Assembly: GCA_021785405.1 (NCBI GenBank)
Contig: JAJYFF010000005.1
Coordinates: forward strand, 23,738-87,737
Reading direction: 5' to 3'
Length of the DNA: 64,000 nucleotides
Origin: Pseudomonadota bacterium
Lineage (GTDB): Bacteria; Pseudomonadota; Gammaproteobacteria; Steroidobacterales; Steroidobacteraceae
Position numbers and translations under genes: made by a program. The notes below the pieces were generated by a model, which had not been told where the DNA came from, made no database searches, and saw only the letters and a program-made list of their open reading frames with translations. Within the stretch, counting starts at the first letter, position 1. The number at the start of each line of letters is the position of its first letter. Of this stretch, positions 58,891 to 64,000 are shown piece by piece.

Positions 58891-59601
58891 ATGGCCGAGC
58901 AGACTGAAGGTGATTTCGACCTGGCGTCGCTGAACGACGAAGAGTTGATCGAGCAGGTCCACGACGACCTCTACAACGGCCTCAAGGAAGAGGTGGAGGA
59001 AGCCACGCGGATCTTCCTGCAGCGCGGGTGGGCCGCGGAGAAGGTGCTGAACGACGCGCTGGTCGAGGGCATGCGCATCGTCGGCATCGATTTCCGGGAC
59101 GGCATCCTGTTCGTCCCCGAAGTGTTGCTCGCCGCGAACGCGATGAAGGGCGGCATGGAGATCCTGCGCCCGCTGCTCGCCGAGACCGGCGTCGAACCGA
59201 TCGGCAAGGTCGTGATCGGCACGGTCAAGGGCGACATCCACGACATCGGCAAGAACCTCGTCTCGATGATGCTCGAGGGCGCGGGCTTCGAAGTCGTCGA
59301 CCTCGGGATCAACAACCCGGTCGAGAAGTACCTGGAAGCGCTGGAAAAGCACAAGCCGGACATCCTCGGGATGTCGGCGCTGTTGACCACGACGATGCCC
59401 TACATGAAGGTCGTGATCGATACCTTGAAGGAGCGTGGCCTGCGCGAGGATTTCATCGTGCTCGTCGGCGGCGCGCCGTTGAACGAGGAATTCGGCAAGG
59501 CGATCGGCGCCGATGCCTATTGCCGCGATGCGGCGATCGCGGTGGAAACCGCGAAGGCGCTGATCGCGAAGCGCCGTGGCCTCAGGGCCGCGGCGCACTG
59601 A
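58891..59601 (+). CDS. cobalamin-binding corrinoid protein (MtbC/MtmC/MtgC-like methyltransferase cognate corrinoid protein)
   Basis: N-terminal B12-binding-2 helical cap, then ...GTVKGDIHDIGKNLV... (DxHxxG, His-on ligand), ...MSALLTTT... and ...VGGAP... Confidence 0.88.
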   Translation: MAEQTEGDFDLASLNDEELIEQVHDDLYNGLKEEVEEATRIFLQRGWAAEKVLNDALVEGMRIVGIDFRDGILFVPEVLLAANAMKGGMEILRPLLAETGVEPIGKVVIGTVKGDIHDIGKNLVSMMLEGAGFEVVDLGINNPVEKYLEALEKHKPDILGMSALLTTTMPYMKVVIDTLKERGLREDFIVLVGGAPLNEEFGKAIGADAYCRDAAIAVETAKALIAKRRGLRAAAH

Positions 59602-59617
59602 GCGCACGGAGGGATCG

Positions 59618-60268
59618 ATGGTGGTCGACGGGCAGGGCACGCTGATCATCGCCTGCGGTGCGCTCGCGCACGAGGTGGCGGCGCTGCGCGCGGCGAACGG
59701 CTGGAGCGCGCTCGACGTGCGGTGTCTACCGCCGGAACTGCACAATCGGCCCGAACGCATCCCGGCAGCGGTTCGCGACTTGATTCGCGAATCCCGGCCG
59801 CAGTACCGGTCGATTTTCGTCGCGTACGGCGATTGCGGGACCGGCGGACGGCTCGACGAGGTATTGGCGGCCGAGGGGGTCGAGCGGATCCCGGGCGCGC
59901 ATTGCTACGAGTTCTACGCGACCGGGCCCGCGTTCGCCGCGCTCGCCGACGACGAGCCGGGTTCGTTCTACCTCACCGATTTCCTGCTGCGGCACTTCGA
60001 GCGCCTGGTGATCCGCGGTCTCGGCCTCGACCGTCACCCGGAGCTGTTCCCGACCTATTTCGGCAATTACCGGCGCCTCGTCTATCTCGCGCAGCGGCCG
60101 AGCGAGACCGCCGAGCGGGAGGCGCGCGTGATCGCCGAACGGATGGGGCTTGCGTTCGAGTACCGGCTCACGGGTTACGGGACGCTCGCGACGAGCCTCG
60201 CCGCGACCGTCGAACGCGGACAGGATACGGCGGGCCGCGAGCACCGGGTGGATGCATGGGCGAACTGA
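59618..60268 (+). CDS. DUF1638-domain protein
   Basis: MVVDGQGTLIIACGALAHEV...FVAYGDCGTGG...FYLTDFLLRHFE... is the pattern I associate with DUF1638, which co-occurs with corrinoid methyltransferase genes. RBS GGAGGG. Confidence 0.75.
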   Translation: MVVDGQGTLIIACGALAHEVAALRAANGWSALDVRCLPPELHNRPERIPAAVRDLIRESRPQYRSIFVAYGDCGTGGRLDEVLAAEGVERIPGAHCYEFYATGPAFAALADDEPGSFYLTDFLLRHFERLVIRGLGLDRHPELFPTYFGNYRRLVYLAQRPSETAEREARVIAERMGLAFEYRLTGYGTLATSLAATVERGQDTAGREHRVDAWAN

Positions 60269-60603
60269 CGATCATTTCCTGGCGCGACATCCCGGCACAG
60301 GTGATCGTGAAGCGCGGTCGCCTGTCGGCGAAAGTGCAGCTGTCGCAGCGCTTCCAGGAAGCGGTCGACCGCGCCGCGATGCGCGCCGGGAAGGGCAGTT
60401 CCGACGCGTATCTCGCGGATTGGAAGCGCAGCGCTCCGCGGCCGTGCAGTGACGACCTGCAGGCCGAAGCCGCCGCCGAGGCGGCGTCGATCGAGGCGCG
60501 CTACAGCGACGAAGACCTCGAGCGGCTGATCCGCGCGAAGGGCCTGGCCTCCCCGCCGCCGCCCCCCGCAGGGTCGACCGAGCCCGGCACCGGAGCGTCC
60601 TGA
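60256..60603 (+). CDS. small conserved protein of unknown function (resembles proteins annotated 'virulence factor' family in equivalent clusters)
   Basis: MGELTIISWRDIPAQVIVKRGRLSAKVQLSQRFQEAVDRAAMRAGKGSSDAYLADWKR... It overlaps the upstream gene by 13 nt, and its stop overlaps the next ATG (TGATG). Confidence 0.55.
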   Translation: MGELTIISWRDIPAQVIVKRGRLSAKVQLSQRFQEAVDRAAMRAGKGSSDAYLADWKRSAPRPCSDDLQAEAAAEAASIEARYSDEDLERLIRAKGLASPPPPPAGSTEPGTGAS

Positions 60604-62125: not shown

Positions 62126-62179
62126 GATTTCCGGACACGGTGCGTCCGTGACCTTACGACTCCCCCACAGGATGACCCC

Positions 62180-63100
62180 ATGACAGATACCGTAGTGAGT
62201 TCCGCGACCAAGGAAGTGGTGATCGGTTTCGACCGGCCGTTCGTGATCATCGGCGAGCGCATCAACCCGACGGGCCGCAAGATTCTGGCCGCGGAGATGG
62301 CCGCCGGCGATTTCAGTCGCGTCGAGGCCGACGCGCGCGCCCAGGTCGAGGCCGGCGCGCACATGCTCGACGTCAATGCCGGGATCCCGCTCGCGGACGA
62401 ACCGGCGATCCTCGCGAAGGCGGTCCAGCTCGTGCAGTCGATCACCGACGTCCCGTTGTCGATCGACTCCTCGATCGTCGCGGCGTTGGAAGCGGGTTTG
62501 AAGGTCTACAAGGGCAAGGCGCTCGTGAATTCCGTGACCGGCGAAGAAGAGCGGCTCGAGGCGGTATTGCCCCTCGTGAAGAAATACGGGGCCGCGGTGA
62601 TCGCGATCTCGAACGACGAGACGGGGATCTCCGAGGATCCGGACGTGCGCTACGCGGTCGCGAAGAAGATCGTCGAGCGCGCGATCGATCACGGGATACC
62701 CGCGAGCGACGTCGTCGTCGATCCGCTGGTGATGCCGATCGGCGCGATCAATTCCGCAGGGGTGCAGGTACTGCGGCTGGTGCATCGCTTGCGCACCGAG
62801 CTCAAGGTCAACACGTCCTGCGGCGCCTCGAACGTCAGCTTCGGCCTGCCGAACCGCGACGGCATCAACAGCGCGTTCCTCACGATGGCGATCGGCGCCG
62901 GGATGACCTCGGCGATCGCGAATCCGTTGCATGCGGACGTCGTGCGCGCGTGCCTGGGCGCCGACGTGATGATGGGCCACGATCCGGACTGCGCGCGCTG
63001 GATCCGCAAGTACCGCGAAGTGCCGCCGCCGGGCGCGGCGGGCGAGGGTGCGGCTCGCGGACGGCGCGAAGGCGGCCTGCGGCGGCGGCCGTCGGCCTGA
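62180..63100 (+). CDS. methyltetrahydrofolate:corrinoid methyltransferase (pterin-binding domain, AcsE/MetH-domain/MtrH-like)
   Basis: ...FVIIGERINPTGRK...MLDVNAG...PLSIDSS...ALVNSVTGE...NTSCGASNVSFGLP... Confidence 0.85.
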   Translation: MTDTVVSSATKEVVIGFDRPFVIIGERINPTGRKILAAEMAAGDFSRVEADARAQVEAGAHMLDVNAGIPLADEPAILAKAVQLVQSITDVPLSIDSSIVAALEAGLKVYKGKALVNSVTGEEERLEAVLPLVKKYGAAVIAISNDETGISEDPDVRYAVAKKIVERAIDHGIPASDVVVDPLVMPIGAINSAGVQVLRLVHRLRTELKVNTSCGASNVSFGLPNRDGINSAFLTMAIGAGMTSAIANPLHADVVRACLGADVMMGHDPDCARWIRKYREVPPPGAAGEGAARGRREGGLRRRPSA

Positions 63101-63117
63101 GCCGGAACGATCTCACG

Positions 63118-64000
63118 ATGACCACTGCCGACCCGCTGATCGTCTTCATCCCTTCGGGCAAGCGCGGCCGTTTCCCGGTCGGCACCCCGGTGCTGCAAGC
63201 GGCCCGCGCGCTCGGCGTGGACATCGATTCGGTGTGCGGCGGCCGCGGCCTCTGTGGCCGCTGCCAGGTCCTCGTGGCCGAAGGCGAATTCGCGAAGCAC
63301 GGGATCAGCTCCACGCAAGCGAGCCTGACGCCGTTCAGCGAGCCGGAGCGGCGCTACGCGAAGCGCATGTCGCTCGCCGAAGGACGACGCCTGTCGTGCT
63401 CGGCACGGATCGAGGCCGATGTCGTGATCGACGTGCCGGCGAGCAGCCAGGTGCATCGGCAGGTCGTGCGCAAGGAGGCCGAGGTACGCTCGATCGAGCT
63501 CGATCCGGTCGTGCGGCTGCATTACGTGCAGGTCCGCGAACCGGACATGCACGATCCGTCCGGCGATCTGCGCCGCCTGTACGACGCGCTCGAGAAGGAA
63601 TGGGGCCTGCGCGACCTGTCCTCCGACCTGCGGGTCTTGCAGGTGGTTCAGCCGGCGCTGCGGGCGGGCGGCTGGGCCGTGACCGTCGCGGTCCACGCGG
63701 ACACGCGGATCCTCGACGTGTGGCCGGGCTTGCACGAGAAGGCCTACGGGCTCGCCGTCGACGTCGGCTCGACGACGATCGCGGCGCATCTGTGCGATCT
63801 GCAGACCGGCGACGTCGTCGCCAGCGCGGGCGTGATGAATCCCCAGATCCGCTTCGGCGAGGATCTGATGAGCCGCGTGTCCTATTCGATGATGAATCCC
63901 GGCGGCGCGGCGCAGATGACCGCCGCGGTCCGCGAAGCGCTGTCGACGCTCGCGGCCGACGTCACGAAGAGCGTCGGACTCTCGCCCGAGGACATCCTCG
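63118..64000 (+). CDS. ASKHA-domain corrinoid reductive activase (RACo/AcsV-like) with N-terminal 2Fe-2S ferredoxin domain; 3' end beyond the window
   Basis: MTTADPLIVFIPSGKRGRFPVGTPVLQAARALGVDIDSVCGGRGLCGRCQV...LSC... is a plant-type 2Fe-2S motif, followed by ...GLAVDVGSTTIAAHLCDL... (ASKHA phosphate-1 motif). Confidence 0.85.
   Translation, partial: MTTADPLIVFIPSGKRGRFPVGTPVLQAARALGVDIDSVCGGRGLCGRCQVLVAEGEFAKHGISSTQASLTPFSEPERRYAKRMSLAEGRRLSCSARIEADVVIDVPASSQVHRQVVRKEAEVRSIELDPVVRLHYVQVREPDMHDPSGDLRRLYDALEKEWGLRDLSSDLRVLQVVQPALRAGGWAVTVAVHADTRILDVWPGLHEKAYGLAVDVGSTTIAAHLCDLQTGDVVASAGVMNPQIRFGEDLMSRVSYSMMNPGGAAQMTAAVREALSTLAADVTKSVGLSPEDIL

Follow-up and report, generated by a model that had tools for sequence, protein, structure and literature searches.

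Which enzyme delivers methyl groups to a corrinoid- and tetrahydrofolate (THF)-dependent gene cluster that appears to lack a substrate methyltransferase? The question is raised by seven genes at one end of a 64,000-nucleotide (nt) stretch of contig JAJYFF010000005.1 (assembly GCA_021785405.1), the whole of which is referred to here as the window and which comes from a member of the Steroidobacteraceae (Gammaproteobacteria). A first-pass annotation of the window had described the cluster as the corrinoid-protein, methyl-THF (CH3-THF):corrinoid methyltransferase (MT2) and activase half of a three-component methyltransferase, passing a methyl group into THF for oxidation, and this description holds. 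Its title also spoke of 'no visible substrate methyltransferase' (MT1), which is true within the window but misleading: the absence is an artefact of the window edge, which falls inside the seventh gene. The cluster belongs to a system that has already been described, and the puzzle of its substrate enzyme is already explained. We consider it probable, at roughly 80%, that the window contains seven of the eight genes of an MtgBCD-type cobalamin-dependent methyltransferase of aerobic Proteobacteria and that the eighth lies just outside.

Results

The window has ~69% G+C, and we analysed the region from 58891 to 64000. Seven open reading frames (ORFs) run through it in one direction, and profile searches of the window proteins against Pfam and NCBIfam, judged by the curated cut-offs, placed their domains well above the Pfam thresholds:

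58891-59601 (+): mtgC-like stand-alone corrinoid (cobalamin-binding) protein, 236 amino acids (aa); B12-binding_2 PF02607 and B12-binding PF02310, E 2e-27
59618-60268 (+): DUF1638 protein, 216 aa; PF07796, 99.5 bits, E 2e-28
60256-60603 (+): small protein of the PF13769 'Virulence_fact' family, 115 aa; 92 bits, E 3e-26
60603-61103 (+): metV-like Cys-rich subunit of a MetFV-type methylene-THF reductase, 166 aa; PF12225 (methylene-THF reductase (MTHFR) C-terminal), 90.5 bits, E 6e-26
61100-62125 (+): metF2-like methylene-THF reductase, 341 aa, GTG start; MTHFR PF02219, 118 bits, E 5e-34
62180-63100 (+): mtgD-like methyl-THF:corrinoid methyltransferase (MT2), 306 aa; Pterin_bind PF00809, E 4e-30; NCBIfam PRK07535
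63118-64000 (+): RACo/RamA-like reductive activase ([2Fe-2S] ferredoxin and ASKHA ATPase), truncated by the window end, with residues 1-294 of 673 inside; Fer2, RACo_linker (E 1e-30) and Raco_middle

All seven genes and their domains had been named correctly in the first-pass annotation, and the start codons match independent gene calls on near-identical contigs. In gene order the junctions are a 16-nt gap, a 13-nt overlap, TGATG (a 1-nt overlap), GTGA (a 4-nt overlap), a 54-nt gap and a 17-nt gap; the four tight junctions counted earlier are exact, and a fifth, that of 17 nt, is nearly equal to them in tightness. Inside the operon, neither sigma-70 promoters nor terminators occurred above shuffled expectation, and an Rfam scan at gathering scores detected no cobalamin or other riboswitch upstream of it, the sole match in the window being a group I intron elsewhere.

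An exact-protein look-up with the MT2 recovered six contigs, among which L001 (NCBI GCA_027456225.1), L002, L004 and L005 match the window at 99.8-99.9% identity over 4.5-9.7 kb. Four contigs (L001-L004, at 99.8-99.9% identity) run past the window end and the downstream arrangement is identical in all four. The extending contigs place the end of the activase at window-equivalent 65139, and 636 nt past its stop codon, on the opposite strand and convergent with the operon, lies a gene for a 522-aa protein of the MttB family (PF06253). This MT1 gene occupies window-equivalent 65775-67343, i.e. it lies outside the window, 1.8-3.3 kb beyond position 64000. Since its ORF has no internal stop codon, it is of the non-pyrrolysine type. 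The expectation that the MT1 would be located past 64000 was thus borne out.

The 522-aa protein resembles PDB entry 4YYC, which its depositors called a 'putative trimethylamine methyltransferase', most closely (793 bits, 69.5% identity over 505 residues). It also aligns with the glycine betaine methyltransferase MtgB of Desulfitobacterium hafniense (2QNE, 9YCE) with 432 bits and 45.9% identity over 473 residues, whereas the true trimethylamine methyltransferase MttB (7XCL) yields 121 bits and matches the C-terminal half only. A pyrrolysine-type trimethylamine MttB was considered and rejected on the basis of its TIGR02369 score (257 bits against a cut-off of 525), the lack of an internal stop codon and the partial match to 7XCL. 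A mutagenesis study of 2026 assigned the betaine site of MtgB to Y97, F356, R312 and H348 (PMC13080624); in our alignment, Y97, R312 and H348 are kept in the MT1 as Y133, R352 and H388, and F356 is replaced by G396. The pattern Y133/R352/H388/G396/W392, in which the invariant W392 lies four residues upstream of G396, is common to 4YYC and to all MT1 orthologues in related loci, and a second class of MttB-family paralogues (~40% identity) has Ser or Thr at the Y97 position. Glycine betaine is our best guess for the likely substrate of the MT1.

Between the activase and the MT1 is a 108-aa ORF (L001 11086-11412, plus strand; window-equivalent 65402-65728) with no Pfam or NCBIfam match, which is confined to the closest relatives and may not be a real gene. 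Beyond the MT1 follow a 207-aa dihaem-type cytochrome c and a 475-aa protein (L001 13300-15388, minus strand; window-equivalent ~67600-69700), and then rpoD and dnaG. In the 475-aa protein, which matches no family, a signal peptide is joined by a single CxxCH motif and by a C-terminal Phe such as an outer-membrane barrel has.

The corrinoid protein carries the DxHxxG motif as GDIHDIG (residues 114-120). Its best NCBIfam models are of MtgC type, with scores below the cut-offs (NF047996/NF047995, 218 against 370 and 170 against 310 bits); PDB 1Y80 is the closest structure, and the B12 domains of MttC and MetH were also matched. The MT2 exceeds the cut-off of the NCBIfam model for CH3-THF:corrinoid methyltransferases (PRK07535, 365 against 259 bits), and its closest PDB entries are MeTr/AcsE (2YCI, 1F6Y) as well as MetH's folate domain. 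The complete activase gene in L001 additionally encodes RACo_C_ter, and the protein can be aligned with RACo 3ZYY from one end to the other (E 1e-92), with scores below the cut-offs of the AcsV (401 against 800) and RamA (105 against 500) models. Its N-terminal [2Fe-2S], linker, middle and ASKHA domains are those of RACo of Carboxydothermus hydrogenoformans (PDB 3ZYY) and of RamA of methanogens; the partner of RACo is the corrinoid iron-sulphur protein CoFeSP, whereas that of the window activase is a MetH/MtgC-like corrinoid protein. A canonical MetH was also considered and rejected, as the folate and B12 modules are encoded by separate genes and the cluster has no PF02574 or PF02965 domain.

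Such methyltransferase systems, which the first-pass annotation had called best known from anaerobes, are now also described in aerobic Proteobacteria (PMC5764234; PMC12478193). Transposon fitness data revealed that Phaeobacter inhibens makes methionine through a three-part B12-dependent synthase (Price et al. 2018, PMC5764234), which additionally requires a ferredoxin-DUF4445 'RamA-like' activase and a DUF1638 protein; these two have almost the same phylogenetic profile, and mutants lacking the RamA-like activase, like those lacking DUF1638, are methionine auxotrophs (PMC5764234). Ruegeria pomeroyi depends on MtgC and MtgD both to make methionine and to grow on glycine betaine (Mausz et al. 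2025, PMC12478193). On betaine this bacterium induces MttB-family MtgB proteins, RamA, DUF1638 (supplement of PMC12478193) and cobalamin synthesis, and its most strongly induced protein is MetF2 (SPO1862), encoded next to mtgD (PMC12478193). Homologues are found in Alpha-, Gamma- and Deltaproteobacteria, where they often lie close together or share an operon (PMC12478193), and deletions of mtgB1 and mtgC in P. inhibens are described in a 2025 preprint (bioRxiv 10.64898/2025.12.19.695462).

The system of Ruegeria pomeroyi DSS-3 and Phaeobacter inhibens, MtgBCD(E), comprises components of the same kinds: a stand-alone corrinoid protein, an MT2, a non-pyrrolysine MttB-family MT1, an activase, a DUF1638 protein and a MetF beside the MT2. 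Whereas the genes of these marine roseobacters are scattered, those of the window are tightly coupled in a single operon of seven genes, to which the MT1 is convergent, in a gammaproteobacterial metagenome-assembled genome (MAG) from soil or peat, and MtgE is not linked to them. The PF13769 protein and the MetV-like subunit, both conserved in the window operon, are not mentioned in the texts of PMC5764234 and PMC12478193. The three-component logic is also that of MtgABC, the glycine betaine:THF (or coenzyme M) methyltransferase of Desulfitobacterium hafniense and Methanolobus vulcani. In contrast to MtgABC, the MT2 of the window is AcsE/MetH-folate-like and not of MtgA type, the scores of the corrinoid protein fall short of the cut-offs of both NCBIfam MtgC models, and in a host that is probably aerobic the methyl group would be oxidised rather than feed acetogenesis or methanogenesis.

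A scan of species-representative genomes with the MT2 gave >560 matches, and the best 80 of these, with 80-96% identity across Gamma-, Beta- and Alphaproteobacteria, were taken as related loci. Nearly all are MAGs, assigned to Steroidobacteraceae and other Gammaproteobacteria, Rhodoferax, Comamonadaceae, Burkholderiales and a few Alphaproteobacteria, which makes a Steroidobacteraceae-like gammaproteobacterium the probable source of the window on this evidence too; the alphaproteobacterial loci (e.g. Inquilinus, L076) are linked to the cluster by shared domain content and context. Gene order was counted by tblastn with the window proteins over the 59 loci that cover the corrinoid gene to the activase. 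All seven genes occur in the same order in 49/59, which argues that the order is kept by more than chance. DUF1638 is present in 57 of the 59, together with the activase, PF13769 in 56 and the metV-metF pair in 49. Six loci have the order corrinoid-DUF1638-PF13769-MT2-activase and lack metV-metF; because PF13769 persists there, we regard the reductase pair as an optional insert and PF13769 as part of the core.

To assess the neighbourhoods of the relatives, we clustered the adjoining ORFs and then searched Pfam and NCBIfam. Of the 80 loci, many of them truncated, 33 have an MttB-family gene no more than 10 kb from the cluster, and an orthologue of the MT1 (≥75% identity) was found in 22 loci, usually convergent and directly after the activase. 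Immediately upstream of the cluster, 27 loci have a GbdR-like AraC/DJ-1 regulator, mostly co-directional (e.g. L048 268-1305, L062 5588-6718), which scores 415 bits against a GbdR model cut-off of 480; in the lineage of the window a divergent betC occupies this position. Genes like those for dimethylglycine dehydrogenase or the alpha subunit of sarcosine oxidase occur in 13 loci, and genes for PurU, a GMC (BetA-like) protein and an aldehyde dehydrogenase (BetB-like) also lie near the cluster in relatives. A Bhmt-type homocysteine S-methyltransferase (459 bits, cut-off 338), a protein reinterpreted as MtgE by Mausz et al. 2025 (PMC12478193), is linked in eight loci, and a second scan with an MtgE query placed MtgE on other contigs of eight further cluster-carrying MAGs. 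This context is as expected for betaine catabolism joined to methionine synthesis. The quaternary-amine donor suggested in the first-pass annotation is thus likely, given that the MT1 is much closer to MtgB than to MttB and that relatives carry the GbdR-like regulator and the dimethylglycine and sarcosine genes.

In seven relatives (L011, L016, L020-L022, L024 and L041, at ~positions 1000-6700) the corrinoid gene has, immediately upstream of it, an MttB-family paralogue of the second class, with Ser at the Y97 position. Ahead of this paralogue stands a ~690-aa Hydantoinase_A/Hydant_A_N protein, joined in L011 and L016 by the Bhmt-type MtgE. This arrangement suggests that a second, different methyl donor feeds the same corrinoid core in these bacteria.

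Two operon proteins belong to families without an assigned mechanism. DUF1638 has at least 8000 homologues (word-indexed search), which form 1609 clusters at 50% identity, and at C13, H42, C73 and C96 it shows no variation among homologues of 40-56% identity. In an AlphaFold2 model (mean predicted local distance difference test (pLDDT) score 82.5), C13 directly follows strand beta1, H42 sits in a short helix after beta2, C73 comes after beta3 and a three-residue gap, and C96 is beside a low-confidence loop; judged by this model, the Cys3/His residues may form one metal or cluster site. A Foldseek search of the model against the PDB was uninformative, with a best E of ~8e-3 and template-modelling scores of 0.3-0.45 to generic alpha/beta domains, and profile searches of PDB sequences with DUF1638 and PF13769 gave nothing below E 0.3. 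The first-pass annotation had left the role of DUF1638 blank. The auxotrophy of the Phaeobacter mutants and the induction on betaine in Ruegeria now correct this, and by analogy DUF1638 would be an accessory factor for B12-dependent methyltransferase activity. For PF13769 we found 5184 homologues, with residues 7-96 near-invariant and a disordered tail. Its model is a small alpha/beta fold (pLDDT 78.7) with no structural relative in a fold search against the PDB (best E 0.19), and the family was not mentioned in the literature searched. Its persistence where metVF has been lost ties it to the corrinoid core.

The MetV-like protein contains NGPCGG at residues 86-91 and a cluster of eight Cys (59, 62, 65, 75, 79, 89, 98 and 106). 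The gene order, with metV upstream of metF, the 4-nt GTGA overlap, the NGPCGG motif and the Cys clusters are common to the window pair and to the MetFV-type (two-subunit) reductases of acetogens such as Clostridium ljungdahlii, and agree with the published definition of this type (PMC8515935). The C. ljungdahlii enzyme contains flavin mononucleotide and two [4Fe-4S] clusters and uses ferredoxin instead of NAD(P)H, and MetFV enzymes are found mainly in anaerobes (PMC8515935). A PDB search with the MetF gave no relative at E≤1e-5, for which reason we consider it divergent from the E. coli type; its metF2-like gene lies 54 nt upstream of mtgD. In contrast to the acetogen enzymes, the window pair is part of a proteobacterial catabolic operon, in which it is optional (absent in ~10/59 related operons). 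MetV/MetF would thus appear, from its sequence features, to be an acetogen-style Fe-S pair in an apparent aerobe. The role of a metV-like subunit in MtgBCD systems is not discussed in the MtgBCD papers.

Two features upstream of the operon had been taken as hints at its substrate and regulation:

57067-58587 (-): betC, choline sulfatase; TIGR03417 797 bits, cut-off 433; Pfam Sulfatase and Choline_sulf_C
58810-58823 (+): candidate sigma-54 site GGCAC-N6-TGC, GGCACTTAGTATGC, 68 nt upstream of the first ATG; the -24/-12 spacing fits

BetC is a possible feeder of choline. Its gene adjoins the cluster in L001-L003 and L007 only and is not a conserved part of the system, so that its adjacency, being lineage-specific, is a weak hint. 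The proposed sigma-54 promoter was not supported: GGCAC-N6-TGC has three matches in the window against 3.1 expected, and the candidate site is kept only in L001-L003, L007 and partly L008, being absent upstream of the corrinoid gene in most other loci checked.

Elsewhere in the window, a tRNA gene at 45744-46046 (+), missed by a default tRNA scan, is split in the anticodon loop by a group I intron of ~226 nt (Rfam RF00028 at 45768-45998, 70.4 bits against a gathering score of 50, E 8e-16). In its intron mode, ARAGORN calls the gene tRNA-Gln(CTG). The splice rules of group I introns, by which the 5' exon ends in U and the intron in G, fit the anticodon CAU better than CTG, as in the intron of Azoarcus tRNA-Ile(CAU). 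At 51538-54354 (+) lies an ORF of ~900-940 aa with coding-like G+C at third codon positions (0.89), a Pro/Ala-rich C-terminal tail and no Pfam match at E≤1e-5.

Discussion

Domain identities, gene order, the conservation of the cluster and the presence and type of the MT1 are shown by the sequences, whereas the way in which the methyl group flows, the substrate used and the double role of the system are inferred from the model organisms. By this analogy the eight genes would work as follows. The MtgB-like MT1 would move a methyl group from a carboxylated quaternary amine, likeliest glycine betaine, to the Co(I) corrinoid of MtgC, leaving dimethylglycine, and MtgD would transfer it from CH3-Co(III) to THF. 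MetV/MetF2, presumably running in the oxidative direction, would convert CH3-THF to CH2-THF, which would enter folate-linked one-carbon oxidation or assimilation. Corrinoid oxidised to inactive Co(II) would be re-reduced by the [2Fe-2S]/ATPase activase, and DUF1638 and possibly PF13769 would take part in this repair. As a second function, the MtgC/MtgD core could work in reverse, from CH3-THF to Co, and serve an unlinked MtgE as a split methionine synthase. The first-pass annotation had treated a methionine-synthase role as incompatible with its reading; this has to be corrected, since the same MtgC/MtgD core does both in the model organisms, and such a role is a likely second function here.

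Could methionine synthesis be the main role instead? MetV/MetF would then produce CH3-THF, MtgD would methylate MtgC and an unlinked MtgE would methylate homocysteine, the MttB-family gene being minor or separate. The proteins MtgC, MtgD, DUF1638 and the activase were indeed first found as a three-part methionine synthase and two reactivation proteins (PMC5764234), ~70% of marine mtgBCD genomes lack MetH (PMC12478193), MtgE homologues are common in related MAGs, and the anabolic direction needs a MetF, which the operon provides. On the other hand, neither the window nor the following 9 kb (L001) encodes an MtgE, and the MT1 adjoins instead; the operons of relatives are flanked by catabolic genes and the GbdR-like regulator, not by methionine genes; and the MetF beside mtgD in Ruegeria is the catabolic, betaine-induced paralogue (PMC12478193). 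As both roles coexist in the model organisms, methionine synthesis is more a second function than a rival, and we regard it as unlikely to be the principal one. A different donor, such as choline released by BetC, proline betaine, carnitine, gamma-butyrobetaine or another compound, is in our view distinctly improbable. It would accommodate the divergent betC, the loss of F356, one of the two cation-pi aromatics of MtgB, and the use of different quaternary amines, including choline (MthB, PMC12155760), by MttB-superfamily members at 30-50% identity; the absence of BetA or BetB beside BetC in the window also speaks for another donor. Nevertheless, betC is adjacent in the nearest relatives only, the MT1 retains the aromatic Y97 as well as R312 and H348, which bind the carboxylate, and orthologues of the MT1 (79-89% identity) occur in loci with the GbdR-like regulator, dimethylglycine dehydrogenase and sarcosine oxidase genes of the downstream betaine path. 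The aromatic pair, moreover, is not conserved in MtcB, MtpB, MthB and MtyB according to published alignments (PMC13080624). That the cluster is a chloromethane (cmu-type) or O-demethylase-type corrinoid pathway feeding THF is scarcely credible. A metF2 also belongs to the cmu clusters that aerobic methylotrophs carry. Roseobacter MtgC is reported to be phylogenetically close to the corrinoid domain of CmuA (PMC12478193), but the corrinoid protein of the window is stand-alone, with no CmuA-like fused methyltransferase-corrinoid protein, the sole MT1 candidate is of the MttB family, and the locus has no MT1 of the MtvB/OdmB or uroporphyrinogen-decarboxylase type.

Against the assignment to an MtgBCD-type betaine system stand several points, beginning with the MT1 itself: the F356 position of MtgB is occupied by G396, it is only a guess that W392 compensates for the lost aromatic, and 4YYC, the closest solved relative, carries no assigned substrate, the literature searched holding nothing relevant on it. 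The window contains no GbdR-like regulator, MtgE, dimethylglycine dehydrogenase, sarcosine oxidase, PurU, BetA or betaine transporter, and the only match in a search of it for betaine genes was an unrelated aldehyde dehydrogenase (10510-11922). Upstream of the operon are the choline sulfatase, glycosyltransferases and housekeeping genes; choline sulfatase is the sole metabolic neighbour. The likeness to the Ruegeria and Phaeobacter system is one of shared domain content and gene context, and the aerobic lifestyle of the host is inferred from taxonomy and the neighbouring cytochrome c. Finally, the system is known here from the sequence of a MAG of which ~84 kb is visible, and, depending on the MetE, MetH and MtgE content of the genome, the anabolic role could dominate.

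A further proposal, which we think possible but doubtful, is that the published model (MtgB, C, D and E with RamA, DUF1638 and MetF2) is incomplete. PF13769 would be an unrecognised, near-obligate subunit or chaperone, and DUF1638 a metal- or Fe-S-containing electron gate for the reduction of Co(II) to Co(I), supplying or gating a low-potential electron through its Cys3/His residues in oxygen-exposed cells. MetV/MetF might couple the oxidation of CH3-THF to that electron supply. If this were true, the tightly coupled operon would offer, ready-made, a minimal set of genes with which to reconstitute an oxygen-tolerant corrinoid methyltransferase.

Overall, assignment of the cluster to the MtgBCD-type system would extend B12-dependent betaine demethylation beyond marine roseobacters to Gamma- and Betaproteobacteria of soil, peat and freshwater, in the form of one compact operon. 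This would bear on the terrestrial turnover of osmolytes (betaine and choline-O-sulfate) and on the environmental demand for cobalamin. For biochemical work, moreover, the operon in its compact form supplies a defined list of parts, which includes DUF1638 and PF13769, both without a mechanism, and what seems to be an Fe-S MetV/MetF in an apparent aerobe.

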